Positions 1 through 55,554 of a stretch of 64,000 bases of DNA are shown here, piece by piece. Origin of the DNA: Malacoraja senta. Lineage: Eukaryota. The notes under the pieces were generated by a model. The model saw nothing but the letters and a program-made list of their open reading frames with translations. It ran no database searches and was not told the DNA's origin. The first letter of the stretch is position 1. Every line of letters begins with the position of its first letter. A program made the position numbers and the translations under genes. The stretch spans positions 14,076,001 through 14,140,000 of the forward strand of contig CM075989.1 in the NCBI GenBank assembly GCA_038087875.1, written 5' to 3'.

Positions 1-520
1 ATTGAAGGATATGTTCTTGCGCTCAGATCCTGAATATACAGAGTGCTCTTGGGAAAAAGTTCAGGTACAAGATGCAACTCAACCATTAAATGTGAAAAAA
101 AAACAGTTAACTGCAATGAAGCATCTTGTTCTATAAGAAATGATGTTGTGGATGGATTGGAGTCCAGTGATCTTTCTGAAAGGTATTTATCAAGTGAAGA
201 TAACAGAGAAACAAAAGTTAAGAATGGCTCTTCAGATGAGTCTTTTCAACCATATTGGAAGAAGAAGAGTAAGTTACCAGTTAAACGTGGCCGGAAACCA
301 AAGTCAAACTTGGAAAGGGAAGATTTCCCCACCATGTATCGATGTCAGTATAAGGGTTGCTGTGCTGTTTACAGAGGAGTTGATGAACTTAAGAAACATA
401 TAAAAGAGCAGCATGAAGAGGTACGTGAAAGACCTTGCCCCCACCCAGGAGGTAACAAGGTGTTTCTGATTGATCGCTACCAGCAGCACCATGTAAAGCT
501 GATCCATACAGAAGAAAGAA
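1..520 (+). pseudogene. ZNF276: Processed fragment of zinc finger protein 276
   Basis: ORF 43-588 contains SDLSE, SSDESFQPY and EREDFPTMYRCQYKGCCAVYRGVDELKKHIKEQHEEVRERPCPHPGGNKVFLIDRYQQHHVKLIHTE, matching ZNF276 fingers 1-2 as recalled. No introns; one zinc-ligand Cys is changed to Gly. Confidence 0.85.
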
Positions 521-690
521 CATCTTTACAGATCAGGAGGAAGTGCAAAGCCTTTGGTCACAACTTCGGGAAGACAAACCACATTTGATCAACAATCTTG
601 AAGCATTTTGAGCTCTATCGTATGACCAAGGGTCTAGAGAGAGAGAAGCTGAACATTTTGAAACAGATGGAGCTCTTGAAAGAGATTATG
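519..690 (+). pseudogene. Two joined fragments of a CRACR2A/CRACR2B/RAB44-family coiled-coil region
   Basis: 519-608 reads [30 protein letters not shown] (cf. CRACR2A [23 protein letters not shown]). 610-690 reads [25 protein letters not shown] (cf. [25 protein letters not shown]). The intervening part is deleted; the paralog is uncertain. Confidence 0.65.
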
Positions 691-1385
691 CATAACCCTA
701 TCCAGGAAGACAATGACTCTGACCTGGTGGGTAATCAGTGTGATGACAATCAGGACATTGATGAGGATGGCAATGATGGCGTTTCTGATGAGAAGGACAA
801 TTGCCGTTTTGTTCCCAACCCTGACCAGATCGATGCCGATGGTGACAGCAGAGGAGACAACTGCAAAGACGACTTTGACAACAACATCCCAGATATCTAT
901 GACATGTGCCCCGAGAACAGTGCCATCAGTGAGGCTGACCTGAGGAAGTTCCAAAGGGGACGATGCAGATTGTTCCTAAGTGGGTAGTGCACAACAAGGG
1001 CAGGTAGTGCACAACAATGTTACCTTCTACGTCAACAGAGACCACAATCTATGCTGGCTTTGTCTTTGGCTTGCAGTCCAGCAGCCGCTTCTACGTGGTG
1101 ATGTGGAAGCAGGCCATCCAAACCTACTGGGAGGAGAAGCTGTCCAAACCCATGGATACGCTAGCGTCTAGACCAAGGTGATGAACCCCACCACAGGATA
1201 AGAGGGGGGAGCACCTCACCTGTGCAACGATCTACGAAGAGACTGGCAACACCCTCGGACAGGTGCGAACTTTATGGCACAACCCCAATATCGGCTGAAA
1301 GGATTACACCGCCTACAGGTGGCACCTGATCCATTGACCCTAAACAAGCTTCATCAGGATGGTTGTCAATGGTTGTCAATGAAGA
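691..1385 (+). pseudogene. THBS2: Processed, decayed thrombospondin-2-like fragment (type 3 repeats plus C-terminal domain)
   Basis: [27 protein letters not shown] / [19 protein letters not shown]...[22 protein letters not shown], then in shifting frames [31 protein letters not shown] and TGNTLGQVRTLWH..IG*KDYTAYRWHL. No introns; has stops, frameshifts and internal deletions. Closer to THBS2 than THBS1 by recalled residues. Confidence 0.8.
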
Positions 1386-1391
1386 GAGTGA

Positions 1392-1557
1392 GAACTGGTT
1401 GCCAGTTGGTTTGATGGACTTTGGGGTAGTATTGAACTGGTAGCCATACCTTTTGTTTGATGGACTTTGGGGTACTGTGATATATTATGGCTCTATCATT
1501 CTGCTAATCATTGCTCTAATACTTGCGACCATTGTGTATACCTACCGAGGACTGTGA
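1392..1557 (+). pseudogene. Retroviral Env transmembrane-anchor-like remnant
   Basis: Duplicated (SW/L)FDGLWG motif followed by hydrophobic TVIYYGSIILLIIALILATIVY then TYRGL*. Its position upstream of the PPT/LTR fits the end of env. Confidence 0.4.
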
Positions 1558-2112
1558 ATGTTATCACATTTGATAAAAAGCAGGGAATGAAAGAGCTAAT
1601 AGTCAAATCTAAATTGGAGTCATTCTTCTACAAAAGCATGGCCTAGAAAAACAAAAGAATGACATTGTAAATTATATGGAACACAATATGGAGGACAGAT
1701 TGTCTTTTCAATAAAGACATTAAGATGGTAGCCTGCGTAATAACATGTGCTTCTTTTCAAGGCCATAAAGATGCCAAGATTGAAAAAAATAGCTGATGCT
1801 CCAGAGATAAGTAATAACTTGTTATTGGATGAGCTTGATTTGGACCCAGCTTTCTTATATTCTGAAAGGCTGCAGAATATTTCAGTCATGCCATATTCAG
1901 ACTTGGTAGGAGTGTTATACTGATAAGAAAAATGTATAATTATGCTAATTGTCCTTTGTTCTGTGAGTGGGAGCCCGAGAAGCACTGAGCAACGTTTGTG
2001 CTCATTGTAGATCGCCACTCCCATCTGACGAATCAATTAAAGATTCGTGGTTTTACCTTTAACAGTTTTTGTTACTATCTGCTTTTAAGAAACGAACTTT
2101 GACAAAGGGGAA

Positions 2113-2488
2113 TGATGTCCGTTATTACCAATAACGATATAATGGATTAAGGTATTATAATTGTATGTAGTTGAAATAATGTGATAGTTAATATACAGAA
2201 AGACACAGAGTGCTGGAGTAACTCAGTGGGTCAGGCAGCATCGCTGGAGATTATGAAGTCTGCTGAATTACTTCAGCACTTTGTGTCGTTTCACCTTAAA
2301 ACGAGGGCCGATGCCACCAGTCTGCACAAGCAAGCCTTTCTTCACCGGTTGAAGCGGCTGTTGTTCCGACTCCTGTTGTAAATACCAACATTACGCGCCT
2401 CGTCTCCGTGGGGCTCCCTCCCCTCTCGCCTGACGCTTTGTCTATTGATGGCTGAATAGTTTGTGCTGTTATCTGTTATAGAACATCA
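2113..2488 (+). repeat. Putative 3' LTR of the ERV-like element
   Basis: Directly follows the purine tract; 6-bp terminal inverted repeat TGATGT...ACATCA; contains a short hairpin-repeat insertion at 2202-2287. The partner LTR is not in the window. Confidence 0.6.
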
Positions 2489-3391
2489 GTTAAGTATTTT
2501 TTAACAAGTATAAGAAGTTACCAATATGGAGAAAAAAAGTTACGCATCTTTTAATATTTTGTGGAATTGGAAGAAGTTCTTCATTAAACCTCCAGAGGTC
2601 GTAGCAGTATTATAAATAGTTCAACTGCTAACAATGCTGTCACCATTTTTATTAGATTTGTACCACAGTCAATTGTCATTTTTCAGAAGTTTCAGTGTAC
2701 ATCTGAATGACATTAGATTTGTGGATTTTATGCTATCTGCTTGTCCAACCACCCTTTCTTTGCAGGTCTGTCTGACATTTTTTTTAGAACTAAAAATACA
2801 AAGCTATGTATTTGTAGGTGAGCTTAATCCAGAGTAGCACAGTGTGCCCATTTCTGGGTGACTTGGAACTCACAGGACCCTTGGCATTTCTGTTGCATTT
2901 TAATTTGTTGTCTTTCCTTTCCACCCCTCTCACCCGCAAAGTATTGTCAATAATAGTGTTCTGGCCAGAATTTTTCTCCAGTAAAACTTGTAGTTTAAAA
3001 AAAAAAAAGACAATTCTTATTTAATCACAGAGCAACCAGTTTATACTAATCTTATTTCTCTTGAGACTCTGGTGTTTAAAGGACAAGCTTTCAACCTGCA
3101 TTATGTGTTCTCACTGAGGTCTGTGCCCCCCCCCCCCCCCACCCCACCCCCCGTGACTGAAATGCAGCCTAATTTATTTATGTGTCTGTTTATTTTTTTA
3201 CATATATATTCCATTTTGGGACATATGACAATAAAAAACTCTTGACTTTATGTGTCTGCCTGGATTGATTTCCCTGTGGAGGCCAAGGTCACAGTCATTT
3301 TCTACTTCCAAACGGGATAATACCAGGTTGAAATCTGACATACCTTACAGTTTGCTGCTCACTACTGCATCAAGGAGTGCACCTAAACTCT

Positions 3392-4250
3392 TCAAGTCAA
3401 GTTTATTGCTCAGATGCAAGTACAGTGAGGTAAAGAACAATGAAAATCTTGCTTACAGCAGCATCACAGGAACAGTGCTTAGCGAAGATACAAAAAATAT
3501 AAATTGCACATAAATTCTACAAGACAATGAGAGGAAAAAGACTGCAAAAAACAAGACATTAGTGTAGAAATATGTAATTAGAAAACAAGTCCATGATAGT
3601 GCAAGAGATGGTCCATTTTGTTCTGTTGCTGATGTAGGATTAGGATTGCTCAGGTTGGTTTAAGAATCTGATATTTGCATTTCAGTAGCTGTTCCTGAAC
3701 CATTATTCTGTAGTTACCGCCTATTGGTAGCAGTGAGAAGGGGGTATGGCCCCTTGGAGGGGAAACATGATTGATGGATGCCACCTTCTCGAGGCAATGC
3801 CTTGTACAGATGGGCTAGGCTGAGTACATCACTCTGTAGCCTCATGCATACCCATGCATTGGAGTTGCCATACCAGGCCATGATGCAACCAATCAGGATA
3901 CTTTCTACAGTACATTTGTAGACATTTGTTAGAGTATTCAGTGACATGCCTTACCTCTTCAAACGTCTCAGAACGTAGAGGTGCTGGCATGCCTTTTTCA
4001 CAATTGCATCGATGTGCTGGGCCCAGGACAGGTCATTGGAGATGTTAAATGCTGTTAACTCAACTGCCAACACACCAATGAAAACTGGCACATGGTTTCC
4101 TGACTTCCCCTTTCTGAAGTCAACGATTAGTTCCTTGGTTTTGGTGATGCTCAGTGAGAAGTTGTTGTTTGGTTCCACTCAACCCAGTGTTTTATTTCTC
4201 TCTGGTATGCTGACTCATCACCACCCATTATTTGGCCAACTAGTTGTGTA
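3392..4250 (-). mobile_element. Rex1/Babar-like LINE, decayed 3' fragment
   Basis: Minus ORFs with KTKELIVDFRK, DLSWAQHIDAIVKKACQHLYVLRRLKR and YKCTVESILIGCIMAWYGN. Confidence 0.8.
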
Positions 4251-5397
4251 GTTGATGATTTTATAAAGTGAGTTTGTACAGAGCAGACCAGTGCCTTTTG
4301 GCCCACCCATTTATACTAATCCCACTTGCCTGCATTAATTTAATTTCCCTATTTGTCTCGCTCATTAAAGTACCTGTCTGGATGCCTTTTGCTACTGTAC
4401 AACCTCCACCACTTCTTATGACAGCTCATTCTGGGTCAACTAAAACCTGTTCTTGTTAACCTTTTCTGCAGCCTCTCTAGCTTAATCACATCTTCCCTGT
4501 AGTGTGGTGACCAGAACTTCACAATTCACATTCCAAATGTAGTCCAACTAACATTTTGTACAAAGTCATAAAGTTGACAGGCAGAATATATTTCCCAGTG
4601 TGAAAACATCAAAGACTAGAGGGAATAGGTTTAACGTCAAAGGGGAAAAGTTCTAAAATGTGAGGGAAACGTTTTTTATGCAGAGTTATGTGAGGGAAAC
4701 ATTTTTTATGCAGAGTTATGGGTGCCTGGAATGTGATGCAAGGCCTGAAGGATGAAGCGTGTAAGATGGTGGTGTTCAAGAGGCTTTTAGACAGACATAT
4801 AGATATACAGGAAATAGATAACCTGGTGGCGGTGGAGATTTGTTTAATTTGGCATCCCATTCGGCACTGACATTGCAGGCCAAAGGGCCTGTTCCTGTTC
4901 CCCCTTGCCAAATGCCCCTTTACCTGCAAACAGGCTTTTTCAGTTCACCTTTTGGGAGTTCCTCCTCTTGTCAATTTAGCCCAGTGGATGGCACAGGGAG
5001 TAATCCTGAGATTACAATAATTGTGGTTCTGCATTTTAAACTTCTGGATGTCACCCGGTTATTCATTTTTCAGGGGATCTCTTTCTTGCCTGTCGTTGGT
5101 ACAACTACGGGCCATGACCTATGGTTGCTCCCCCCATCACTTTACCGAATGTTAAGAATTTTTCAGCCAAATATATTAAGAGACAATGTACATAGCGTAT
5201 TGTATGTAGTTGGTACCAGATCAGCTATTATCTTTCTGAATGGTCAGACTGGTTCAAGGGGCATATAGCCTCCACCAGGCCCTGTGTTCAATTAATATTT
5301 CTTCATGCAAGAATTCGAAACAATTTTCAATGTTTCCAATTTTCAATGGTCATATTTCACTTATAATCGTTTAATTATTTTATTATGTCACCTGCAG

Positions 5398-5542
5398 ATA
5401 GCACTTGCGAAGACTTAGATTGTGACTTTACACGTGATCATAATAGTCCATCAATAAAAGTTGGAAATGGACAAGTGAAGCAACTTTCTCGGTTGACTGA
5501 CTTGAACATCAAGACCAAATGGACACAGGGGAAAGGATTAAG
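5398..5542 (+). CDS. Internal coding exon of an unidentified host gene (phase 1 to phase 2)
   Basis: cctgcag acceptor, AG/gtagca donor, open frame (D)STCEDLDCDFTRDHNSPSIKVGNGQVKQLSRLTDLNIKTKWTQGKGL(R); phase matches the next exon. Confidence 0.6.
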
Positions 5543-6511
5543 GTAGCATATACATTTATAAGTACATCTTTTTTTAAAAAAAAGATTTTAAATTGATGCT
5601 GAAATTGTTTGTTTTGCACGGCCTGTGGCTGATTCTTGAATTTTCCAAAGATATCTATTTCAGACTGTAATTTAAAAAAATGAACACAGAGCTTATTCTA
5701 TTTGTGAGGTACCTTGAAGTAATTTCAAGATGATTGTACTAGTATTTAAAGAATGCATGTTAATATGTGGAAACATCTGTGCATATGTAAATGAAAGTCC
5801 AAACATGTGCTCAAAGAAAACTGTAAGATCAATATATCTTGAGGCAGCCAACACCATTCCACGTTTAAAGACAATCCTGATTACTGCCAAGCCTAAATCC
5901 TCATTTTCTTTTCCATCGACACTTGCCTAGTCCCAACCTCTTGAACTTTTGAGTCTCCAGACGTTGCAGCAAGTTATCAACCCTGGCACTCGCTCATCCC
6001 AGAGCTGCTGTGATGCAAGCACTTGAACTTCTGCCATTCTTGCTGAATTGCTGTGTTAGGTTTTGTGCTTTAGGAACTATAAAAATGTATACAACTACTA
6101 GACATTTCTTTCTTATGACCTGGAGATATTACACACTTTAATTCTCAAGGCATTGTCACTGTAAAAGAAATTGAAGTTGCAATTGGAGGTAATGAGTCCT
6201 TATTTTGTGGATGCGAGGAGTAGTATAGCAGGCTGAGTGGGAACCTTTAGAGATTTATAAAATCATGAGGGGCATGGATATCATGAATGGTCACAGCCTT
6301 TGTCCAGCTTTGGGGAATTTAAAACTAGATAGAGTGTGTAGGTTTAAGGTAAGAGGGAAAGATTTAAAGGGGATCTGAGAGGCAACATTTTCATACAGAA
6401 GATGGTCAGAATAATCTGCCAGAGGAAGTTGTAAAGGAGTGTACAGTACAATTTTTAAAAGACATTTGAATAGGTACATGGATGGAAATGGTTGAGAGGG
6501 ATATAGGCCAC

Positions 6512-6603
<92 letters not shown>

Positions 6604-7335
6604 GTTTATTGGCCAAGTATTCACATACAAGGAATTTGCCTTGGTGCTCTGCCTGCAAGTGACAACATGACATACAGTGACAGTTAGGAATGACATATAA
6701 AACATTAAACATTAATAACAAAACATTATTGATTAAACATGTGAATTAAATAATATACCAGAGCAAAAGGAGGCTACAGATTTTTGGTTATTGAGTAGAG
6801 CTACTACTCGTGGGAAAAAAAACTGTTTTTATGTCTGGCTGTGGCAGCTTTGACAGTCTGGAGTCACCTTCCAGAGGGAAATGATTCAAAGAGTTCGTGG
6901 CCAGGGTGAGAGGGGTCAGAGATGATCTTACCCACTCGCTTCCTGGCCCTTGCAGTGCACAGTTCGTCAATGGAGGGAAGATTGCAGCCAATAACCTTTT
7001 CAGCTGATCGGACGATTCGTTGCAGTCTCCGGATGTCATGCTTGGTGGCTGAGCCAAAGCAGACCATGATGGAGAAGGTGAGGACAGACTCTACGATGGC
7101 CGTATAGAATTGGACTATCATTGCTTGTGGCAGATTGTGCTTCCTCAGCTGTCGCAGGAAGTACATCCTCTGTTGTGCCTTTTTGACTGTGGAGTCGATG
7201 GTAGCCCCCCACTTAAGGTCCTTGGAGTTGATGGTTCCAAATAACTTAAATGACTCCACAGATGTGACTGAGGTGTTGTTGATGGTGAGTGGGGTGAGGG
7301 AAGGGGAAGCTCTCCTAAAGTCTACAATCAATGCA
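6512..7335 (-). mobile_element. 5'-truncated Rex1/Babar-like LINE with a long (TTA)n tail, nested in a CR1 3' fragment
   Basis: ORF 6864-7346 (LIVDFRR...KKAQQRMYFLRQLRK...PSHPGHELFESFPSGR); (TAA)n at about 6512-6603 follows AATAAA on the minus strand. Confidence 0.85.
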
Positions 7336-11445: not shown

Positions 11446-11673
11446 TTAAGAAAGAACTGCAGATGCTGGAAAAATCGAAGGTAGACAAAAATGCTGGAGA
11501 ATCTCAGCGGGTGAGGCAGCATCTATGGAGCGAAGGAATAGGTGACGTTTCGGGTCGAGACCCTTCTTCAGAAGGGTCTGAAGAAGGGTCTCGACCCGAA
11601 ACGGCACCTATTCCTTCGCTCCATAGATGCTGCCTCACCTGCTGAGTTTCTCCAGCATTTTTGTCTACCTTAT
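11446..11673. mobile_element. Penelope-derived inverted-repeat (hairpin) element with hammerhead-like cores
   Basis: Inverted arms, each with CTGAAGAAGGGTCTCGACCCGAAAC; flanked by direct repeat AATTCGTGTGT (11435-11445, 11674-11684). Confidence 0.7.
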
Positions 11674-24660: not shown

Positions 24661-26432
24661 GTGAGTTTTGTTAACCTTTATAAATCTTAAAATTACACTT
24701 CTTTCATTTTATGCTTATTAATGCAACATAAAAAATGAATGTTTTGAAAAATGTTTTTAACCTTACTAAAAGGAGGCAGTGGTATAGGAAAAGGCCAGCC
24801 ACTGCACTACAGCCAATGGCACAGCCACTGATAGATACACCTCAGAAACAGGCCCTTTGGCCGGAATCTGCCAAACATGAGCCACCCATTTTCACAAAGA
24901 CTATGTCAATCCCATTTTTTATTTTCCTGAGATTTCCTTCATACAAATACTGAAGTGATTTCAACTGGGATATATTCAGTGAGCACAGAGAGTTGGAGGC
25001 TTAACTGTACTACTGTAGATTAGCAGTAGGAAGGAGCAAAACATTGGAATGAATTAAGGAAAAAGACAAGATTTATTCAATCCTGGTGGTGGCGAACCTG
25101 TATTGGCCAGTTGGTCCCTGTATTTCGTATGAATTAGCAATTGAAGGCAGGGTTTTGAATAACTGGGTTACAAATGGGTAGAAAGGTAATAAAGTTAAGT
25201 GTGGGGATTTCAACAGCAGTCAAAATGAAGTAGGAAGTAGACAGACAACATCTGAGGTGAACAAAATTCAGTCTTCATGATGTTCTGTAAGTGTGACTCA
25301 GGGCTTATCTTTGGAGTTGCATGTGATATCGAAATTGTGAATAGGCTGGGTCATTTTCAGGCAGTTGTTCCAGATGGATGGATAAGGAAAGGATCGTCTG
25401 ACTGGTCCTGTGCTTCTAAATAATTTAATTGGAGGGAATGTTGCTTAATCCTTTACTAAATATCAAGCAAAGTGGTATTTTGGGAAAAGTGAGGATTACT
25501 GATCCAGAGACAAATGCACCCAGGATACCATGCTGCGGTGAACAAAGGACAACCAGGGCTTTTATCAAGTTTCATCTTCCTCCTAACAATTCAGTGATAT
25601 TTTATTTCAGTGAACTGATGAGTCTGGTTTAAAAGAAGAGACTACCCATTGGATAGTTATACTTACACTCATTAAGACTGAATATTTCCACCTCGGATGT
25701 TGTCCGCCTACTCCCAACCTCATTTCGGTTGCTGTTGAAATCCTTACTCTCAATTTTATTACCCATTGGATATTTTTTCCCATTTAACATTTCTCTTCTT
25801 GATAATTCATTGTTTAGCCCCTGGTAGGGAATAGCAGAGATAAAGATTTCAACAGAGTTGGCCTGTTGAAAAAGATTTAAATCAGTGCCCATGTATGAAC
25901 TTACTGCAATGCATAAAACTGTAATTAGTTTTTTTTCCATTCTGTAGCTGCTATGCACTAGTCCAAAAGGTTCTAGGGAGTGGAAACTGGGTGGAAATTG
26001 TCCATCAGATTTTGCACATTACACAGATTGCTCCCTAATGGATGTGGATCCAAACATTACCACCTCTGGTAGTTGGAAAACTGATATTGCTGTCAGCAAT
26101 AGTGTAATTTGTATCGCTCCAGGATGGAGTGTTTTATGACTGATATGTGTGCACCTCTGCTATTAAAGTAACATATTTCAGAAATCCATTTGCAGTTTAT
26201 TATTTTTACCTTGTGAATAAATCTCACAATTTGGAATGTATTTAGGCCGTCAAATATTTTTAAAATTATTGCATATGTTGAATGATACCTTTTGGTTCGG
26301 AACTGATATATATTTAACAATGTTTATTGCTGGATCTTGTAAAGTTTGTAAGAAGAATATACAGCAAATAATGACTGTTGTAGCAATTAGATTCACCATT
26401 TTATAGCAATTGCTGGAAAAGTATTTATTAAA

Positions 26433-26653
26433 GGTAAACACAAAATGCTGGGGTAACTCAGTGGGACAGGCAGCATCTCTGGAGAGAAGGAATGGGTGAC
26501 GTTTCTGGTTGAGACTGAGGTGTCTGAAGAAGGGTCTTGACCCAAAACGTCACCCATTCCTTCTCTCCAGAGATGCTGCTTGTCCCGCTGAGTTTCTCCA
26601 GCATTTTGTGTCTACCTTTGATTTAAACCAGCATCTGCAGTTCTTTCCTACAC
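26433..26653. mobile_element. Penelope-derived hairpin element
   Basis: Inverted arms; CTGAAGAAGGGTCTTGACCCAAAACGTC core; direct repeat AGTATTTATTAAA at 26420-26432 and 26654-26666. Confidence 0.7.
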
Positions 26654-27539: not shown

Positions 27540-27729
27540 TGGTGTTAAAGAAGGAACTGCAGATGCTGGAAAATCGAAGGTACACAAAAATGCTGGAGAA
27601 ACTCAGCGGGTGCAGCAGCATCTATGGAGCGAAGGAAATAGGTAACGTTTCGGCCCGAAACGTTACCTATTTCCTTCGCTCCATAGATGCTGCTGCACCC
27701 GCTGAGTTTCTCCAGCATTTTTGTGTACC
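27540..27729. mobile_element. Penelope-derived hairpin element with a perfect 75-bp-arm palindrome
   Basis: Arms 27579-27653 and 27655-27729 are exact reverse complements; direct repeat CACACCAAATTAA at 27527-27539 and 27729-27741. Confidence 0.8.
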
Positions 27730-32619: not shown

Positions 32620-33670
32620 CAGGGCCGGCCTTAGGAGGTGCGGGGCCCAATTGGGAACAATTTTGGTGAGCACCAGGTTCCCAGCCAAGGTCTGTAGAAT
32701 CATAGAAATACAAATAAAGTCTATTATAGACTTTATATCTCTATGGTAGAATGGAAAGTAATCAAAATGTGCGCTTAAACAGTGCCTGCGAGTTAATGGA
32801 CCAAACAGATCTAAGCTACATTTTAATATAAAATTGCATACATGTAAGCCTACAAGTAACAAACAAAATGTGTAGACACCTCTGAAAAGTACATAGTTAC
32901 AATACCACTTGTTTTAGTGACTGTGAAATGAAAAAAAAATAAACTAGATCCTGGAAAACCAATAACTATTGGCGTTGTGTGTGTGTCTGTGCGTGATGTG
33001 TGTGTGTTAGTTGTCTGTGCGTTATGTGTGTGGGAGGGAAGGACAGAAGGGAGGGAGGAAGGAGAGAAGGGAGTGAGGAAAGTAGAGAAAGAAGGGAGGG
33101 AGGGAAGGAGAGAAGGGAAAAGAGAGAGAGGAAGGAGAGAAAGAAGGGAGCGAGGGAAGGAGAGAAGGGAAAAGAGAGACGAAGGGAGGGAGGGAGGAAG
33201 GGAAATGAGGGATAGAAGGGGAGAAGAGAAGGGAAGGAGAGGGCCGGCGGCAGGAGCGGATGCCGGGGTCCGGGTGGATGGGTGTGAGCTGAGGCCGAGG
33301 TTTGTAAACGTTGCTCCAACGCCCGGCCCTCCCTGTATTGTTCACCGCGTCTTCCCGGGGAGAGAGAGGGGGGTGCCGGGGCTGTGTGCATGAAGCACGG
33401 CGACTGGACGGGCGGGAGCGCTGCCCCGGGACAGTGAGGAACGACCCACCTCCCCCTCTCCCTCTCCCCCTTCTCCATTTCCCCTCACACCCCCTCCCCA
33501 TCTATCCATTTCTTCCCTCTCCACCCCTCTACTCTCTCTCCACCCCTCTCTCCCCCCTCCACCCGGGGTAGATCTACCTGAGCCGAGAGTAGATTACTCT
33601 GGCGCGGAGCCCCCTTACTCGCGGGGCCCAATTCGGAGCAATTGGTCGAATCGGCTTAAGGCCGGCCCTG
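32620..33670. mobile_element. Non-autonomous hAT DNA transposon
   Basis: TIR CAGGGCCGGCCTTA / TAAGGCCGGCCCTG; 8-bp TSD CCAGGGGA (32612-32619, 33671-33678); internal polypurine and polypyrimidine tracts. Confidence 0.9.
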
Positions 33671-36600
33671 CCAGGGGAGCAAAGCACCAGACTATCCAGT
33701 CACTTTATATATCTCAAGCCCTCCAGTCCCAGTTCTTGTGAATCTTTCTTGCACCCTTTCAAGCTTAATGAGATTCTTCCTATAGCTTGGTAAACGCAAC
33801 TCGGCACTATGTGTAATTAGATTTTATTGCTAATTCAAAGTGGAATTTTTTAATGGAGGTACAATCTTTTGCAGGTCATATGCAAGTCAGTTTATACATT
33901 TGAATGTTCATCCTTTTTGGAGATTGATTGTTCTCTCATAAGAAGGATGCAGTTGAGTGCCAAAAAGAGAGCAGAGGATATTGCCTGGATTGGAGGACAT
34001 TAGTTATGAGGAGAGATCGGATAGGTTGTGCTTAACCTAAAGCTTGTAAAAAAGAGAATTACACAAGTGGAATTGCAATTTTGAACTTAGGTTTGCTCCA
34101 TGTTTTGGGTTTTGGAGGACAGGTACCGGGCTCATTTTGTGGTCCTGGGAAAGAATAGTTTCATGCAGGAAGTGGCATTGACAGTGAGGAAGGTTGCTAA
34201 AGGATAGAGCAGAATATAGCTCAGTTGGAAATATAGATAGAGAAATGGCAAATTGAGTTCAATCCAGACAGGTGAGAGGTATCGCACATCGGCAGGTCAG
34301 ATGCAAGAGGAATGTATATAGTAAATAGCATTGTCTTTGGAAGCGTTGATGCACTGAGGGATATTGGGAATCAAATTGATAGCTAGTGGATACAAGTGGA
34401 GAGGGTGGTAAAGAAATGGTGCAGCATGCTTGCCTTCATCTTTCGAGACATTGTATATTGAAGTTGGAAAGTCATATTGCAGCTGCATTAAACTTTGGTT
34501 AAGGCACATTTGGAGCAATGTGTGCAGTTCTGGTTACCCAGTTACAGGAAGGATGTGGAGGCTTTGTAGAAGAATAAAAAAAGCTGTACTAGAATGCTGT
34601 CTGAATTTGACGGTATTGCCTATAAGGGGAAATAGGACAAACTTGGATTGTGTGGAAAGGAACTGTAGATGCTGGTTTAAATCGAAAATAGACACAAAAG
34701 CTGGAGTAACTCAGCAGGCCAGGCAGCATCTCTGGAGAGAAGGTATGGGTGATGTTTTGGGTCGAGACCCTTCTTTAGACTGTTCAGATTGTTTTCTCTG
34801 GAGCATCCAGGGTTGAGGGTTGACCTGATAGAAGTATATAGTCACAATCATACAGCATAGAACCACGCCCTTCGGCCCAACTGCCCATGCTGACCAACAT
34901 GCCCCATCTACATTAATCTCACCTGCCTGCATTTCTACACTCAATACTCTGACCAATGAAGACCAATGTGCCGAAAGCTGCCTTGATCATCCTAACTACC
35001 TGTGATGCCATTTTCAAGGAACTATGTACCTGCACTCCTAGATGCCTCAGCACTCCCCAGAGCCTTGCCTTTCAGTGTAGGTCATGCCCTGGTTTGACTT
35101 CCCAAAATGTAACACCTCGCGCTTATCTGTATTAAACACCATTAACTATTCCTCAGCCCACCTGCCCAAATGATTAAGATCCTGGTGCAATTTTTGATAT
35201 CTATCTTCGCTATCTACGATGCCAACCACTATGCCAACCACTAAATACTATGATTTGCTATTCCCTTCTTAAATCCATCTATGCTCCGTCTTTACCATGC
35301 TGTGTAAAACTAAACTAGGACTAATCCTTCAGCCTGCAAACTCCAAACAATCTCCTGTCGTACCCCCAAGCCCAGCTCAATGCGATATCCACTTCCTGGG
35401 CATAATATCAATTGTAATCACAGAGATGCAAAACAAAAATAAATCCTTTGGTCCTTGGAAATGGCACTGAACTTCAACCATTCATTTAAACTAAATCTAC
35501 ATAAATCTCATATTCCCATAAACGCCCCCTCCCCAGATATTACCATTTCCTTACACACCAGTCAATTTGCAATAGCCAATTAATTTACCATCCTTTATAT
35601 CCTTTTTATAGTGGAACGGTAATTTAGATTGAGTTGGCCTGTAGAATACTGTGATTTATTGACCAACCTAACTGTGCTGTGAATCTCTGCCTCAACGAAG
35701 CATGGTGAAAGGCTAGTACTGTTTGAAATGTTGAACTGTATTATGTGATTTCTTGTGTTGGTAATGTGTTTTTTGAAAATATAGTCTAGTTCATGGTGCT
35801 TTGTTCAAGTTTTGTTTTGTAATTGTTTTATAATTAAATCTCTATTTGTGACTTGTTATGTGCCACACAGTTTACAACACCCAGAGTTATTTATCACTTT
35901 CTCAGTAGCAAATGATCTGTGAATATATATTTAGAAAAATCCTGTGTGATTTTGTACGGCCACACTAATTAGGTGAACTATATAATGTGTAATTCAAAGG
36001 ATCATAGTATCGTACAGTACAGAAATGGTCCTGTCAGTCCAGCTTGGACTGTCAACTGTGGTGCCTATCTAGGCCAATCCCATTTACCTGCATTAGACCC
36101 ATGTCCCCTATGCCTTTCAAATTAAGTAACTGTTCAAATGTATTTTAAAAATATAATTTAAAATGCGTCTACCTACTCATCTGGCAGCTCTTTCCAGATA
36201 ACAAACATCCTCTGTGTAGAAAGATTTGCCCCTCAGATTTCCTTTAAATGTCTTCCCTCTCAAAAAATCTGTGCTTAGTTCTAGACTACGCTATCCTCTA
36301 TGATTTCATTTTCCAGAAGCTATGAACTTGCACAACAAGGTCCTTCTGTACATCAACACTCCTAAACTCCTTGCCGTTTAAATGTCTGCCCAGAATTTGA
36401 CTATCCCATGTGCATTACCTGATACTTGGCTGGATTAAATCTACCACAGATCCACCCAACTTCTCAGCTGATCTATGTCCTGCTGTATCCTCTGGTAACC
36501 TCCTGTACTAGATTCAACCACTAATTTTCATGTCAAATTCAAACTAACTAATCGGACCACCTACATTTGCATCTAAATAAATTATATGTGCAAGCAACAA

Positions 36601-38048: not shown

Positions 38049-38330
38049 TGGATCAGTGGAAAGCAGGCTACCGCCGTCTCCAGCCTCCCGTATTGGCAAT
38101 TCCTTGACAAGTTACTCAGAAGGAAGTGAGAGTGATGCTGTATATGACTCTACTATGGAGAGTGACTTTGAATCCCGCACAACTGTGTTCAGCCAACAGC
38201 AGAATTCACAAGGAGATAGCCCTTGCTGCAGTCAGAGCAATTCCAGCTGTAGCTGCGCTTTTTACGATGATCTGAAAATGGAGTTGGAGCCTGATGGATC
38301 CTATAGCCATACTTCTGAAAGAGAATACAT
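38049..38330 (+). CDS. Internal Ser/acidic-rich coding exon of the unidentified host gene (phase 2 to phase 2)
   Basis: tttctgcag acceptor, AT/gtatgt donor, 282 bp open: (N)GSVESRLPPSPASRIGNSLTSYSEGSESDAVYDSTMESDFESRTT...SHTSEREY. Confidence 0.75.

Positions 38331-45831: not shown

Positions 45832-45862
<31 letters not shown>
45455..45862 (+). mobile_element. L2-clade LINE 3' end with (TTA)n tail
   Basis: GDRAFSVAAPALWNTLPLHIRQAPSLSIFKTSIKTHLY read from 45533; tail ataaataaag(tta)n. Confidence 0.85.
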
Positions 45863-45865
<3 letters not shown>

Positions 45866-47384: not shown

Positions 47385-47820
47385 GTCCCATTACCTGCTC
47401 CCTCACATCCACCCAAGGACCCCAGGAGTCCTCTCAGGTGAGACGGAGGTTCATGTGCATTTCCTCTAACCTCATCTACTGCAACCAGTGTCACTGATGT
47501 GGCCTCCTTTACATTGATGAGGCAAAATGTACACTTGGCGCCCGTTTGCCGAACACAAGTGCCAAGGCTTACTGGATCTCCCAGTTGCTATCTATTTAAA
47601 CTCCTCTTCCTATTCCATTCTGACTTTTCTGTCCTGGGCCTCCTCCATTGCCAGAGTGACGCCACACATAAACTGGAGAAACAGCTCATATTCTGCTTGG
47701 GCAGTTTACAACCCAACGGTATGAACATTGAATTCGCCAATTTTAGGTAACTTACCAAAACGTTCTCCACTTCTAATCCCCCCACTTTCTCCCCCCTCTC
47801 CCTCACTCTTCCCCTATGCC
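47385..47820 (+). mobile_element. Penelope-like element GIY-YIG endonuclease remnant
   Basis: FMCISSNLIYCNQC..CGLLYI, RPFAEH and LIFCLGSLQPNGMNIEF motifs. Confidence 0.8.
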
Positions 47821-48249
47821 CCAACAAAACATTTTTGGGCAGGCACTTGGATTGGAAACAAGTAGAGGGATATTGGCCTAATTAACATATCCAGCAGCAC
47901 TTACAAGGAGCTATTTTTGCTCATTTTAATTTTGACACACTTGATATGTGTGTATTAAGTAAGCTTATTCCATGTACAAGACTGTTGAAATAAATAGCAG
48001 CATGTGATCACAATTGTACTTGCAGGAGGTTACATTTCTCGGTATAATGAAATAAGCAATTGATTTTTATTTCCATTTGAGTTAATTACACCCTATCACT
48101 TTTTACTAAGATCAAGATCTAATAATGTATCTTCAAACTGCTTCTCCATATTTGCAGCAGTTGTATTTGGAAAATTACACTTCAAATATTGGACTTCTGT
48201 AGATTCTTTGAAGTGAAATAGAAATACAAGACTGATTATCTGACTAAGT

Positions 48250-49060
48250 TTGGCAGCGCCTTGTGGCAGCGGCTCGTTTGCAGTCCATCTGTCTTTTCTT
48301 TCTTTTTGTCCTGTTAGGTGTATGTTTTTGGTTTTAGTTTTATTTTATTTTTAGCTGTGTATATGTGGGGTGGGGGTGGGGGAAACTTTTTAATCTCTTC
48401 CCTGCACGGGGACTCGACCTTGCCCCTGTCGAGTCGCCGTTGTCGTTGGGGCCTAACATCGTGGAGTCGGTGGCCTCCAACCGGAATCGACTTGAGGCTC
48501 CAGTCGCAGAGCCTGCGGACTCATCATCACGGAGCTGGCCGACTTCGGAGCGTGGAGCGCTGTGGTGGCGCACGGCTGCGACCCGACTTTGGAGCTTCGG
48601 AGGCTCCGGCTGCAGGCCCTGTGGACGGTAACATCGGGAGCTCGCGGGTCCCTGGTGGGAGACCGCTTTTCGGAGCTCCAGCAACGCAACTTCTCCCGCC
48701 CTAATCGAGGGGTTTAAATCGACCCGGCGCAGGGCCTTGCATTGCCCGGGGCGGCTTAAACGGCCGCGGGACTTACGATCGCCCGCCGGGGGCTCTAACA
48801 TCAAAGCCTCGATCAGCTCGATGCAACAGTTTGACTGCGGGAGAAGAAGAATAAAGAACAGAGAACAGGGAAGAGATAAGACTTTTGCCTTCCATCACAG
48901 TGAGCAGGTGTTTGGAGATTCACTGTGATGGATGTTTGTGTGGAATTGTGTTAATTGTGTGTCTTGGTTTTTTGCTGTTATGACTGCAGGAACGAAATTT
49001 TGTTTGAACCTTGTTTTTAAATGACAATAAACGACATTCTGATTCTGAATCTGAATCTGA
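48250..49060 (+). mobile_element. CpG-rich non-coding retroelement with Rex1-like tail
   Basis: Same 5' T-rich/G-run block and 3' block as the 12.2, 21.1 and 29.3 kb copies; AATAAA plus (ctgaat)n tail. Confidence 0.65.
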
Positions 49061-49149
49061 AGTTTCTATTTCATGTGTGGTTGGCGTTCTCTGGTTTTTT
49101 GATTCTTAGTTATGTGATGTACATTTAAAAACTGCAGATGCTAGAAATT

Positions 49150-49428
49150 TGTTTAGTGTAGTTTAGATGTACAGCTTGGAAACAGGCCCTTCAGCCCACC
49201 ATGTCCGTGTCGACCCATGATCACCCATACACTAGTTCTATCCTACACACTGGGGATAATTTTTACAGAAACTAATTAACCTACAAACCAGCACTGGACC
49301 ACCTGGAGAAAACTCATGCGGTCGCAGGGAGAATGTCCAAACTCCGTACAGACAGCACCCGTAGTCAGGATTGAACCCAGGTCTCTGGCGCTGTAAAGCA
49401 ACTGCTCTACTGCTGCACCACTGTGCCA
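49150..49428 (-). mobile_element. tRNA-derived SINE (V-SINE/HE1-like)
   Basis: Homologous to the other SINE copies in the window. Confidence 0.85.
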
Positions 49429-51710
49429 CCCTAATGTAAAATCTGAAATAAAAGCAGAAAATGCTATAAATATCACTTGTTTAAAAAAAAAAGATATAAT
49501 TATTCTTGGCTGCTTTAGCTGCTGTAGTGAACATAAATCATGAATGCGTTTGGAGTTAACAAAGATTTTGTATTGTCATTTGTGATTTACAATAAATTGA
49601 ACATCTTATCTATGGACTAAGTTATACATATGAACCTACTGTCATACATAGAGTAAATGTTCTGATTTTCTACCAAAGCTTTAAAGTAATTACAGACTGA
49701 GGACTTTGTACAAATGTGTTCAATTTGTGTTTAATGATGTCACAAAGTTGCATCCACATATAAAATGTAATATATTGTTAGGTCTTGTTAATCTGTTGGA
49801 AATGAGGAAATTATTATCTAACGTTCAGAGTTCAGTTGAGAAATTAGTTTCGTAAATAAAAGTTAATCACCAGTTCCATTTCTTCCATGGGATTCTTGGA
49901 TGTCAAAGAAAGAGAAAACACTTGCATTTATTTTGCACCCTTTATTCTCAGGAGATGCTCAAAAGCACTTAATAGTAATTGAATTTGCTAACTGAAAGGT
50001 AATCTGTACTTTGCCAGAGGAACTATGGTATCCTCTTCATGTACAACACGATCCCACAGCAGGAGTTAGATCAGATGGAAAGATATTGCTGTATATGCTG
50101 GTAATCTGAAATAAAGCAGAACATGTTAGATTTGCTACTCAGGTCTTGCAGCCAGTGTGGAGAGATGAGCAGAGTTAACACTTGATCTTATCAGAATGGG
50201 GTACTAAGATAATGAACCGATAAGATCGGGTTTTGTTTAAGAGACAAAACCTGGACAGAATTGCAAAGTACGAAGCACTTTTCTTGGAAGCATTTATGGC
50301 CATTGGAGAGAATGGACGTGACCTCATTTTGACGTCACATTTGAAAGTGAGTCTGGGAGTTCCACAGTAGCTCACTGGAGAAGCAGCACAATGGGGCTAG
50401 ATCATACTGATAGTTACAAAGGGAACTGCTGGTTTTAATTTATTCCACTGGAGTCATTTCTGGTCAGATTTTGGTGCTTCTGCCACTTTGCTCCATCACC
50501 AAATTCCACATGGGAAATCAGTGAGACCTGGTGTCTACAATAGAAACCCATTTATTTGAACATGGATTCCTGTTCTGAAGATTAGGTGGAAAAAAGGCAT
50601 TATTTTTTTATTTAACAAGAAACATTTTTTTTTCATTTAAAAACTGTTATCTTTATGTACAGGAGACTCGACAGGGACAATTTCATGGCTTTTAAATTAC
50701 TTTTTTCTCAGCCTTACCTGTATTTAATGGTTGTGAGGGAGTGATGAGGTGGGTCAACATATTCCCGGATGTGAAGGGCCAGAACAGTGGCTCTCCTGTA
50801 GTAGGCTGAGGTAAGTGCAGATGGTGGGCAAATCTGAAAATTGGACCTAACTCAGCATAGTCCACGATCTTCCGACTCTGAGATAAGAGGCTGACTCTTC
50901 TGTATCATCCCTCAAAGGACGATTCCACACTGACTAGGACTGATCTAGCTGTATATTTTTTGTGATTGTGGCCATTGGAAACTGTATTGTACAGTTTTAC
51001 TTGTAGAAAAGAGATTGTTGAAGGTGATCAGCAATTCTCTCTCTGCTTTGGTAAGTCATATTATGGTCTTCCTCAAAGCAAGCAAAGTGCCTGGAGCTGT
51101 GATGTCAGATGGAATACAATGCATGATGAACATTTCTGTTGCAACGTTATATTGGATGTATACACAGAGGAATGTGAAGGCCTATTCAAGTGATTCTTAT
51201 CTAAGCCGCTGTTAGCACTTTGTTAGTGAAGCCAACAGTGAAATCTTCACAGACAGTCAAGATGTCTTCTGTGACACTTGTGACACTGTGACAGTGTGGC
51301 AACCAATCAGTCCTAGTCCCATCATTCACTGGGGATGGGCGGCACTCTGATTTTCAACAGCCCCACCCCCACTCAAAAGAAAACAGCAATTCAGGAGGTC
51401 ATGCTTTAAAGTTTGAGATTCTCTAGCTTAAAAGTTTGAAGGTTTACGTTTTTTAAAGGGCATAAAACAAAAGGACATAGGTCCCATGACTCCACATGGA
51501 ACTGGCTGTTCCTGTCTTAGCACCATGTTTTCTAAACCATTAACACTTTAAGTTTATTTTGAATATATATCTGTCCACCAATATCAGAAATAATTGTAGT
51601 ATAATTGTACATTAAACCTCAACTTTGTTTCAACTGATCCCTGTTTATTCAGTGCTACAGTTTTCAGCATTCATTGATGATAACTTCTAAACTTACATAA
51701 AGTTGGATAT

Positions 51711-51868
51711 TGTTGTGTATTTGTTGCTTGGAACGGTCTTTAAATAATACTCGGACACGGGAGTAAACTAACAAGCTTCTTTATTCTAAACGCCACCTTG
51801 AGTCTCTCCTGCGCATGCGTACCATTGCGCAAGACATCAAATATGTTAATTATATTACATACCTAACA
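51711..51868 (-). repeat. 3' LTR (158 bp)
   Basis: Direct repeat of 55301-55458 with 2 mismatches; minus-strand AATAAA near 51780; NRF1-like TGCGCATGCG motif. Confidence 0.97.
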
Positions 51869-51883
51869 CTCCTCCCCCTTTAA
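51869..51883 (-). promoter_or_regulatory. Polypurine tract
   Basis: Minus strand AAAGGGGGAGGAG directly abuts the TG of the 3' LTR. Confidence 0.9.
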
Positions 51884-52189
51884 CTTGGAGGCAGGTAACA
51901 CCATTTCTATTTCATACCCCACACTCCTCCCCCTTTAACTTGGAGGCAGGTAACACCATTTCTATTACATAAACAGTACTCCTCCCCTTTTAACTCAATT
52001 TCACCTTCACGATATATGCTATTTACCTAACATATAATTGATTGATACACTGTTGCAAAATTGTATTATTAAAGTCATCTTACAATGCATCCTCATAACT
52101 GTAATAATCTTATCTAAACCTAGCACATAATTTTCATTCCACCCATCTTCCTTAAACCAAATACATTACCCCTTGCTTTATGTGTTATC

Positions 52190-52728
52190 ATTTTCCGTTC
52201 CCTTATGTGTAAATTGCGCACTCTTTCTAATCGCTCTAGCTCTGCCTGTATCTCGGACTCTTCCTTTTTAAATGTCCTAATCTTAATTTGAAGATTTCTT
52301 CCTGTTCCTGATATTCTGCTAAAGTTAACATTTAATTTTCTGCTTCATATATTCGCTTTGTTTTCCTCTGTTTCTGTTCATTATTTGTAGGTGGCACCTG
52401 ACACATGGCTGCAGGTTTTCGTTTTGCTAGCAGCTTTCTCTGTCGCTCAATTTCCTTGCGCTGCGTATTTATCCGCTCTTGTTGTTTAATAAGATTCTGC
52501 AATGCATAACCATGTGTCCATTGCTCAGTGAAGGAGGCTACATGCCAGACTGTATGTAGTGAAGTGTCCTAGTCGCAATCGGTCCTGCATACTTTTGTCT
52601 CGACCGACAAGCCTCTCTTGTTTAGACATTTCTATTAGCAGCTTTTTACTCATTGTCACACATTTATTTAACCATTCTTTGTATCGTTTAAGTATTTTCT
52701 GTTGTTCATCTATTATTCTTAAGTCACA
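52190..52728 (-). pseudogene. TLK2: Processed fragment of tousled-like kinase 2 (coiled-coil region, no kinase domain)
   Basis: [54 protein letters not shown], then after a frameshift [103 protein letters not shown]. The linker resembles TLK2 rather than TLK1; no introns. Confidence 0.9.
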
Positions 52729-53695
52729 TCTCTGGTTCTTCATCAAGAAGTAGGATCTATATTGTCTTTGCAATACAACAATATAGTTTTCTTGCTTCAT
52801 AAGCAAGGTAGTGAGACTGCACTACAATTGCTGGATATTTCAGTTTGAAGAAGTCTTTCCTATACCCAATCATAGGGAGTACTGACTGAATTTGTACAGT
52901 AGCCCTCTTTTGCTTAATCCACTGCCTAACCACCATACCCTTGTAGGCAGCCTGAATGGCAATGGTTGCATACCTCATTGACTGATATTGCACAAACTGG
53001 GCATGCCCTATTTTGCATGCTTTGTACCATCTCTGGATCGAAATGACTGCTTGTCGCATAGCTCTGTAGCATACCCTTGATCGGTACCCACGGAATGAAG
53101 CTTGCAAAGTGACTATAGCCGCCTTTTGCATCAAGAAATATTTTCTTGAAATGCACATCATTAAGAATGACTTAATATGGCGAGCTGCCTTGATTTTCTC
53201 AACCAATTCTCTGGCTTTGACTCCGCTGTAGAAGGCCTGAATACAAACCACTGCTTTTCTCAAACTATTATAATGTCTCACGTGGGCATCTCTTATCTGG
53301 CAAGCCCTGTATCATTGCTGTACAGCAGTGGCGGACCAGCGTAGTTTCTTGAAATACTGACGCTGTTTATGCATTTGATAATAGGTCTGTATGACCTTGG
53401 CATGCACCGCAATTGCTTTCGAACAACCATTCCTCGGTAGGCAGCCTGAAGCAGCACAACGCTGCTGCATACCTTCATGTAAGTTTTGCGATCAGTTTCC
53501 ATTTGAAGGTGTGCCCTATAATGGGTTTGTACTATTATAGCTGCCAATCTCATTGCCCTGTATGGACGGTATACTCGTTGCATTCTAAATACTGCTTGTA
53601 TTACTGTTGCTGCCTTCTGTTTGTCCCGTATCTCTCTCCGTACCTTCATACCCCTGAAGGCAGCTTGAATAGTTAGGGTTGCCCTCTGGATGGTC
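52729..53695 (-). pseudogene. ASPM: Fragment of the ASPM IQ-repeat array
   Basis: Tandem motifs IQAAFRGMKVRR, IQAVFRMQR, VQTHYRAH, LQAAYRGMVVRK, LQASFRGY, IQRWYKA and IQAAYKGMVVR, with ASPM-type periodicity; frameshifts near 53400 and 52795, and a TGA near 53313. Confidence 0.85.
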
Positions 53696-54252
53696 ATGTC
53701 CCTTTGCATTTGACTTCTGTCCCTTTGCATTTGACTTCTGTGCCTTTGCATTTGACTTCTGTCCAGTACATGTGCCCTGTACTGCTGTTGGTAAGCTCTA
53801 ACAGCATCACACTGGCTTTTGGTGTGACCCGTTCCCGAGCACTTGAAACACCTACTATCTCTGACTTTACACATCGCCGGCTCATGGCTGCCTCCACATC
53901 TCCAGCACTTCTTGGAGTTGTGAATCTTGTCTCTGGATGCCCTTGAGGGATTCCATGCCTCCTTTAGTTCAGGCTCCTTGTCTCTGGATGCCCTTGGAGG
54001 TTTTGGCGAGAATTGAGCCATTAATGCCTCCTCACATTCCTCGTACGTTTTACTCGTGGGCTTTGCTGGCTGCAGCAACGCACGTAAGGTGTGATAACCC
54101 TTGCTTCCTAAGCCTACAATGAACCAATCTCTCTTCTTCTCCTCCGCAGTGATATCATTGAAAATGAACCAAGCCTCCAAGACTTCGGTCCATTTCTCAA
54201 AATTATACCCCGAATCTAACTGGGGCACATTTCTTACAATTAAAGTAGCCAT
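53293..54252 (-). CDS. gag: Gag-IQ-repeat fusion ORF, 319 aa (Mag-like Gag N-terminus, two zinc knuckles, ASPM IQ motifs)
   Basis: FEKWTEVLEAWFIFNDI..KKRDWFIVGLG..Y..LRALLQPAKPTSKTYEE..L..QFSPKP; knuckles CWRCGGSHEPAMC and CFKCSGTGHTKSQC; then four IQ-like motifs in the same frame. Confidence 0.85.
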   Translation of the reverse strand: MATLIVRNVPQLDSGYNFEKWTEVLEAWFIFNDITAEEKKRDWFIVGLGSKGYHTLRALLQPAKPTSKTYEECEEALMAQFSPKPPRASRDKEPELKEAWNPSRASRDKIHNSKKCWRCGGSHEPAMCKVRDSRCFKCSGTGHTKSQCDAVRAYQQQYRAHVLDRSQMQRHRSQMQRDRSQMQRDMTIQRATLTIQAAFRGMKVRREIRDKQKAATVIQAVFRMQRVYRPYRAMRLAAIIVQTHYRAHLQMETDRKTYMKVCSSVVLLQAAYRGMVVRKQLRCMPRSYRPIIKCINSVSISRNYAGPPLLYSNDTGLAR

Positions 54253-54853
54253 GCTACCCTGTTGCTATTCAGGTGCACTATGTTCTGTTCTCTCACTGTG
54301 TTCTCTGCACTGGACTTAATCCTTTTACACACTAAGAAGTTATCCAGCCCACTGACTATTACTAATTCTTATAATAATAGATTTATACTAATAAATCAAC
54401 ATTTCATGTTAATAGCAAACTAGAACATTTAAACCATATACCTGCTATGCACACAGATTTACTTAAATCATTGATACAGTGTCCATACATTAAATTCATA
54501 CAGTCCAGCTTTTACTGTGAGTAATTCACTAGTCCGACCTGACTGTCTCTGGACTCCGATGCCTCAGCGACCTCTCGGGCTGTCCTCACCGTTGCTGTCT
54601 TCAGCGGGCTGTTGCTGGCTTTTGCTGGCTTTTGCTGCTTTGCTGGCTTCACGGCTGGCCTGGCTGTTGCTGGCTTTTGCTGCTTTGCCTGTTGCTGGCT
54701 TCATGGCCTGGCTGTTGCTGGCTTTGTCCCGCTCTTCTCACGGCCGGGCCCGCTCTTCTCGCGGCCTGGGCTTTCTCTGCTTATGGCCGTCTCTCGCGGC
54801 CGAGCTGGCTCTGCTCACGGCCGTCTCTTGTGGCCGGCAGGAGACTCGGCTGT

Positions 54854-55015
54854 CGTCGGTGGCGGTTGCCGGACCTGTCCGTGGGCTGCACGGTACTGGC
54901 CCTCACCCGACGTCGGTGGCGGCTGCTAGGCCTGGCCGTGGGCTGCACGGCCCTGGAACTCACCCGACGTCGGTGGCGGCTACTGGGCCTGGATGTTGGC
55001 TGCACAGCCCTGGAA
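54854..55015. repeat. 57-bp GC-rich tandem repeat (about 3 copies) in the element's 5' leader
   Basis: CGTCGGTGGCGG recurs at 54854, 54911 and 54968. Confidence 0.85.
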
Positions 55016-55285
55016 AGCGTTCCAGGTAAGCTGACACCGCTGTCCTGCTGGTTAGGCTTCTAGCTTCCAGCTGCGCTCTTCGGTGACACTTACTGCCTCG
55101 CTTGTTTTCCGTGCGCTCTTGCTTCCCGTTCCGACCTTTCTTTTCTTTGGCGCCAATTCAAATACCATTTGGCGCCAAATCTTTTTGCTTGGTGCCGTTC
55201 CAATTTGTGTCGCCAAATACCAACTCTTTTAAAACTTTTTTTCTTTTCTCTTGGCAGTACTCGTTCTTCTCTTCTCAGTTCTTTG

Positions 55286-55298
55286 ATCCTCGTCGCCA
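55286..55298 (-). promoter_or_regulatory. Primer binding site, tRNA-Ser(GCT)
   Basis: Minus strand TGGCGACGAGGAT, 2 nt after the 5' LTR; complementary to the recalled 3' end (ATCCTCGTCGCCA) of vertebrate tRNA-Ser(GCT). Confidence 0.85.
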
Positions 55299-55300
55299 AT

Positions 55301-55458
55301 TGTTGTGTATTTGTTGCTTGGAACGGTCTTTAAATAATAATCGGACACGGGAGTAAACTAACAAGCTTCTTTATTCTAAACGCCACCTTGAGTCTCTCCT
55401 GCGCATGCGTACCATTGCGCAAGACATCAAATATGTTAATTATATTACATAACTAACA
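55301..55458 (-). repeat. 5' LTR (158 bp)
   Basis: Direct repeat of 51711-51868; adjacent to the PBS. Confidence 0.97.
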
Positions 55459-55554
55459 GATATGTAATATAATGCTCATCTGGTATCTGAAAGCATTAAG
55501 TGTCTGGGAGATTTTGCCTGAAGATGGGTCCCAACCTGTGGTGGGATGGTGGGT

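Follow-up and report, generated by a model that had tools for sequence, protein, structure and literature searches.

Organization of the Locus

The window analysed here, a stretch of 64,000 nucleotides from the skate Malacoraja senta (GCA_038087875.1, contig CM075989.1, positions 14,076,001 to 14,140,000 of the forward strand), contains two sequences, element 1 and element 2, in which pieces of host genes are associated with long terminal repeats (LTRs) (Table 1). A preliminary description of this DNA had presented both as cargo-bearing LTR elements, which is borne out for element 2 by its paired LTRs, target site duplication (TSD), primer binding site (PBS), and polypurine tract (PPT), and in part for element 1, which possesses one LTR-like end. 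The LTRs of the two are unrelated, as had been noticed earlier (best BLAST expectation value (E), 0.4). Four host-gene fragments are supported, namely TLK2, thrombospondin, an ASPM-like IQ tract, and, with weaker matches, a ZNF276/ZNF692-type piece, while the fifth of the at least five fragments claimed (511–690) gave no relative in two reading frames.

Table 1. Positions of the two elements, their terminal features, and their cargo in the window.
Feature	Position	Strand	Basis or remark
Element 2, whole	55458-51711	-	3.75 kb, non-autonomous Gypsy-type, complete
TSD ATATC, 5' side	55459..55463	-	sequence
5' LTR, 158 nt, TG..CA	55301..55458	-	self-comparison, BLAST
PBS (55298-55286) and 5' leader with GC-rich tandem repeats	54253..55298	-	sequence
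Gypsy-type gag, internal deletion, zinc knuckles, 21-nt tandem linker	53695..54252	-	ENA gag match; Pfam zf-CCHC
Cargo C, ASPM-like IQ-repeat tract, three frames	52730..53694	-	Pfam IQ; XP_055489032.1 identity
Cargo D, intronless TLK2 coiled-coil piece, human residues ~241-445, stops and frame breaks	52190..52729	-	PDB 5O0Y
PPT (51881-51869) inside 55-nt tandem repeat, 2.6 copies	51853..51995	-	sequence
3' LTR, 158 nt, TG..CA	51711..51868	-	self-comparison, BLAST
TSD ATATC, 3' side	51706..51710	-	sequence
Element 1	1-2105	+	partial; left part outside window
Cargo A, ZNF276/ZNF692-type, two C2H2 fingers and acidic leader, cut by left window edge	1..510	+	PDB, Atlas
Possible fifth cargo, 180 nt	511..690	+	no match
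Cargo B, thrombospondin (THBS1/2-type) type-3 repeats and C-terminal domain, end approximate	691..1360	+	PDB 2RHP, Pfam
Short hydrophobic tail, env-transmembrane-like by appearance, 46-nt-spaced internal duplication	1392..1554	+	sequence
PPT-like run	1575..1587	+	loose pattern
Putative 3' LTR, 518 nt, TG..CA, TATAA at 1935, ATTAAA at 2036	1588..2105	+	sequence; unpaired in window

Anatomy and Cargo of Element 2

The LTRs of element 2 constitute the single direct repeat pair in a self-comparison of the window and differ by 2 mismatches in 158 nt (98.75% identity over 160 nt by BLAST). Its TG..CA LTRs, 5-bp TSD, PBS, which we take to match tRNA-Ser, PPT, and gag with CCHC knuckles are features of Ty3/Gypsy elements, in agreement with the Gypsy-like label given earlier. 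Both LTRs flank host cargo and the TSD lies outside them, which is the arrangement by which an LTR retrocopy is recognized. The length of 3.75 kb leaves no room for pol, and gag is internally deleted; the internal retrotransposon genes are replaced, in that the gag remnant continues into IQ repeats. No poly(A) tail is present at the ends of the cargo.

An open reading frame (ORF) begins with the ATG at 54252 and runs in frame from gag through the linker of 21-nt repeats into the IQ motifs as far as 53296. The gag N-terminus shows 62% identity over 84 amino acids to an ENA gag protein, and approximately 115 amino acids are missing in element 2. The first part of the IQ tract lies in the gag frame, and its last part seems to share a reading frame with the beginning of the TLK2 piece, where the IQ match reaches only E 0.094. 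The name ASPM is based on the Pfam IQ matches and on the name given by NCBI to the closest protein to this ORF, XP_055489032.1 from the little skate Leucoraja erinacea. This protein is identical to element 2 at 74 of 99 residues of the gag N-terminus and at 78 of 93 residues of the IQ part, and it possesses the same gag–IQ fusion point and a related but longer 7-residue linker repeat, without zinc knuckles. Although NCBI names it an ASPM homolog, it is actually a gag–linker–IQ chimera of the element 2 family. Other relatives of the gag region (54252–53960, minus strand) were ENA metagenome proteins (50–62%) and, along a short section, a protein from a sea cucumber (49%), and beyond the skate protein no vertebrate relative was among the five gag matches. 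Judging from the sequence matches, a horizontal transfer of gag from a marine invertebrate is possible. A viral contig scan with the gag–IQ protein confirmed none of its 11 candidates.

The TLK2 piece downstream of the IQ tract matches the PDB 5O0Y chain in four stretches, 65–127 (E 9e-24), 130–191 (E 2e-26), 221–243 (E 6e-7), and 242–269 (E 6e-7). An offset of 176 between the chain and human TLK2 numbering fits all six anchor residues, Y259, R262, G297, R303, S330, and R339, that are mentioned in a study of human TLK2 (PMC5992133). Introns at c.831/832, c.968/969, and c.1121/1122 follow from the splice variants tabulated in that study (PMC5992133, Table 1). All three of these positions fall within the span of the piece, and it crosses each of them without an intron. 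Since intron positions are conserved among vertebrates, the TLK2 piece is considered to be derived from a spliced mRNA. At the level of sequence comparison, intron loss is documented for TLK2 alone among the cargoes, as judged against the human positions.

The Element 2 Family in Related Species

Depth and RNA mapping were carried out for element 2 only, in 4 of 24 sequencing runs (8 organisms); 20 of the 24 runs contain part of the stretch and none contains half of it. Contig depth in the flank was 7, 41, and 45 for organisms A, D, and G, and the median depth over 18 interior bins of element 2 was 108, 168, and 191 times the flank, respectively. The minimum depth of an interior bin was still 29–64 times the flank, with the TLK2, ASPM, and gag bins behaving alike, and positions 54597–54874 showed a depth far below that of the rest of the element. 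The contigs aligned to element 2 numbered 1313, 1828, and 3112, the largest class being 90–95% alike. According to this reading of depth, the family appears to comprise tens to hundreds of diverged copies. The gag–ASPM–TLK2 chimera has thus been amplified as a family that is present in several related species, and element 2 is one mutated copy of this family and not a fresh capture.

One contig of organism D spans the 5' LTR together with 102 bases of flank, and therefore the insertion of element 2 itself appears to be shared with organism D. Divergence from organism D on the other side amounts to 15 of 341 sites (~4%), while the element 2 LTRs differ at 2 of 158, which is somewhat fewer than expected from the divergence of organism D (P ~0.03). 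This low LTR divergence is unexplained; gene conversion or chance could account for it.

The family is also transcribed. From approximately 6% of a poly(A) RNA run of organism D, 856 reads were aligned to element 2, and 16 of the 18 interior bins favour transcripts in the sense of the element, assuming the usual stranded library. A 31-nt skip is seen in 43 RNA reads and is also present in all three contig sets; therefore, those 43 reads come from family copies and not from the parent TLK2 mRNA. No transcription start site was found in the organism D poly(A) reads, which report on the family and not on this copy.

Several observations weigh against an amplified, sense-transcribed chimera of this kind. 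Contig depths that are added up do not give a copy number, and overlaps among short contigs make the figure too high. No contig bridging the gag–IQ or the IQ–TLK2 junction was found among the matches listed, which are 24 of more than 6400, and the gag–IQ fusion was detected in just 1 of 873 candidate proteins. Among the RNA reads, 520 of 856 are less than 90% alike to element 2, and the two bins at 55153–55430 favour the opposite strand. Furthermore, the IQ tract of ASPM is one large exon, and the ASPM piece is therefore silent on splicing.

This last point leaves room for the idea that the cargo was gained at the DNA level after the insertion of element 2, through break repair or recombination with retrocopies, since the ASPM tract cannot demonstrate splicing and capture of complementary DNA at breaks has been reported (PMC4516963). 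However, in three organisms the depth over the cargo is at the level of the family, as it is over gag, and another skate protein, with a different linker, shares the gag–IQ junction. The chimera therefore predates this insertion, so that a gain at the DNA level after insertion is largely refuted and must be regarded as very improbable.

Element 1

Element 1 begins with a zinc-finger piece that gave weak C2H2 matches in PDB, including ZFP91, and for which the ZNF276 and ZNF692 clusters ranked second and third in the Atlas (score 0.93), with recognition below threshold. The gene name ZNF276 is therefore partly our own assumption, and the 3' end of cargo A presumably falls where an exon of ZNF276 ends, which could not be confirmed by a literature search. 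The thrombospondin piece matches the PDB 2RHP chain at 292–316, 349–414, 472–504, and 524–551, with internal deletions and frame breaks, and contains the Pfam families TSP_3 and TSP_C. An env-like reading of 1140–1370 was rejected, as the PDB match there is more thrombospondin. The segment 511–690 gave no candidate that held in frame 1 (0 of 4, with no match among 1.84 billion representatives) or in frame 3 (0 of 3, with no PDB or Atlas match), the short query making both weak tests, and its only Pfam match was sub-threshold and unrelated. We take it to resemble a CRACR2A/RAB44-type coiled coil, a likeness for which the searches returned no relative. The claim that cargo always comes from mid-coding sequence holds for the internal TLK2, ASPM, and thrombospondin pieces and leaves aside the ZNF276 piece, which is cut by the window edge.

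Downstream of the cargo, the order of hydrophobic tail, purine run, and TG..CA segment fits an env remnant followed by a 3' LTR, and the LTR nature of element 1 is probable on this basis. Against it stand the absence from the window of a second copy of the LTR-like segment or of a TSD, the absence of an env or reverse transcriptase match, and a second purine run at 2104, which blurs the end of the element. A presumed intron loss in the thrombospondin and ZNF276 pieces depends on the assumed exon maps of these genes, for which no usable exon boundaries of ZNF276 or COMP were found in the literature searched. The 37-residue hydrophobic tail matched no Pfam env family and no PDB entry, and it is too short to exclude env; the PPT pattern occurs at 72 sites on both strands of the window. 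The endogenous retrovirus (ERV) label given to element 1 in the preliminary description therefore remains unproven, with one LTR-like end and no viral match. Between 2104 and 2190 (plus strand), the second purine run is followed by TG directly after the putative LTR end, which could indicate the presence of another LTR, either nested or truncated.

The same single LTR-like end and lack of a viral protein match would suit a chimeric processed pseudogene, or an element of another LTR class, lying beside an unrelated LTR-like repeat; in addition, an exact-match metagenome scan for the element 1 LTR returned just one contig, for a 21-nt piece, in a 22-nt match rejected as chance. A processed pseudogene would be at odds with the lack of a poly(A) tail after the cargo. 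Furthermore, the thrombospondin piece ends within coding sequence, and the features after it come in the order that would be expected, with the hydrophobic tail and the purine run preceding a TG..CA segment that carries TATA and poly(A) signals. This explanation is accordingly judged improbable, and an LTR element is preferred for element 1.

Possible Mechanism of Cargo Capture

For element 2 the data support a capture of host mRNA by way of LTRs, and for element 1 such a capture is plausible. Both sequences are, with good probability, decayed copies of non-autonomous LTR elements, the interiors of which were replaced by pieces of host mRNA through template switching and which were copied in trans. 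In the proposed course of events, host mRNAs would have been co-packaged in the particle, and the reverse transcriptase may repeatedly have left its own template for these mRNAs and returned to it, which would yield sense-oriented, truncated, and intronless pieces. The resulting chimera would have retained its LTRs, primer site, and polypurine tract, and could therefore serve as a template for an autonomous relative acting in trans. The gag–ASPM–TLK2 chimera was then amplified as a family, and the cargo was most likely neutral filler carried along. The anatomy, the loss of TLK2 introns relative to the human positions, and the multi-copy state are direct observations, from which template switching, mobilization in trans, the neutral role of the cargo, and the assignment of element 1 to the LTR elements are inferred.

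The four identified pieces are all sense to their own element, in agreement with the earlier claim, and this would occur with a chance of 0.06 if orientation were random; the translation-based reading detects only sense coding pieces, so that pieces from untranslated regions or in antisense would be missed. Sense orientation and mid-gene pieces are the outcome expected from the published template-switch mechanism.

The reading frames invite a further explanation, in which the in-frame gag–IQ(–TLK2) fusion was selected because it aids the spread of the family, for example through co-assembly with a helper Gag, or benefits the host, and thus forms part of a working domain-shuffling system. The gag–IQ junction is in frame both here and in the little-skate protein, the IQ–TLK2 junction is apparently so as well, the ZNF276 and thrombospondin pieces share one frame, and the element 2 family is transcribed. 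However, two in-frame junctions arise by chance in 1 of 9 cases, both copies inherit one ancestral junction, and an open frame may merely let the RNA escape nonsense decay. The in-frame junctions, clear for gag–IQ and probable for IQ–TLK2, are too few to show selection. All cargo in this copy carries stops and frame breaks, with gag shortened as described above, and no function has been shown for the domain-shuffling system that had been suggested. Selection on the fusion is thus unlikely, and neutral carriage of template-switched cargo remains the preferred reading.

Comparison with Known Systems

Tan et al. (2016) described LTR-mediated retroposition in metazoans, including multi-parent chimeras of up to four genes in mouse (PMC5131818). 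The cases found there are few, at 1–8 for each of the species mosquito, zebrafish, chicken, human, and mouse, and occupy few insertion sites; they are mostly sense and in frame, and cartilaginous fish lie outside the sample (PMC5131818). As in those cases, element 2 carries partial mRNA pieces in place of the internal ORFs between its LTRs and was copied on as a non-autonomous element, but its family seems to amount to tens to hundreds of copies in several species. That study already describes all of the qualitative features, multi-gene chimeras and secondary spread among them, and the capture is of a known kind. In maize, the LTR element Bs1 contains pieces of three host genes, occurs in 1–5 copies, and has been claimed to encode a functional protein (PMC5131818). 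Bs1 resembles the skate elements in combining several host-gene pieces and in having switch points shared among copies; in contrast, the copy number of element 2 is higher and no function has been shown for it.

A high-copy capture is also known from amphibian ERVs, in which an intronless OGFr was captured once and amplified to 2331 of the 4552 copies of one lineage (bioRxiv 10.1101/2021.11.23.469661). Those ERVs carry one cargo within pol and have a mostly intact env, whereas the skate elements are non-autonomous with two or three cargoes. In birds, 254 ERVs found in 121 species contain 107 host domains, an occasional occurrence among more than 470,000 ERVs (PMC12287698); like the skate elements, these are vertebrate LTR sequences with captured cellular domains. 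No description of LTR elements with host cargo from a cartilaginous fish was found in the literature searched, which lies outside most subscription papers, Repbase, and supplements.

Other Features of the Window

The window has a GC content of approximately 41% and is rich in pieces of long and short interspersed nuclear elements (LINEs and SINEs); no tRNA genes were found in it. No further cargo was detected outside the two elements by Pfam in 104 of the 450 unmasked ORFs of at least 42 amino acids, mostly the longer ones. Their sole Pfam match was ALKBH8_N, a family that also matches the reverse transcriptase tails of LINEs. Two open-frame stretches on the plus strand, one at 5398–5542 with a clean AG..GT pair at its ends and one at about 38049–38330 with splice-like ends that are not fixed and a weak DUF5349 match (E 0.044), are probably exons of a host gene. 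Short near-perfect inverted repeats at 11478–11671, 26427–26622, and 27579–27729 (89–100% complementary, arms of 75–95 nt) belong to a multi-copy family resembling miniature inverted-repeat transposable elements or SINEs, and positions 33030–33700 form a promoter-like GC-rich island containing a GA-rich repeat.

Implications for Skate Genomes

From the two elements within 55 kb it had been suggested that capture may be common in this genome. This does not follow, as one old amplified capture gives an equal rate of encounter; amplification inflates encounters, and the two elements therefore cannot measure capture frequency. Cargo-bearing LTR sequence as such is not rare, the element 2 family being high-copy in three organisms. 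This window provides a single family of this kind and, probably, a further element. It is conceivable, though at present rather doubtful, that skates and rays harbour many independent, high-copy, non-autonomous LTR families that are in-frame mosaics of host mRNAs and constitute a vertebrate counterpart of the gene-capturing transposons of plants, on a scale unreported in the literature searched. Equally tentative is the extension that in-frame gag–cargo fusions are favoured and that the families are still transcribed.

Such families create false gene models, of which XP_055489032.1 is an example, and could inflate the apparent ASPM, TLK, and thrombospondin gene families in skates. The retrocopy pipeline of the Vertebrate Genomes Project discards candidates with at least 40% repeat overlap and families with more than five paralogues; under filters of this type, such families would drop out of standard retrocopy surveys. 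Should there be many independent families, batoids would offer vertebrates well suited to the investigation of mRNA packaging, of selection on the frame of junctions, and of the effects of cargo small RNAs on parent genes.

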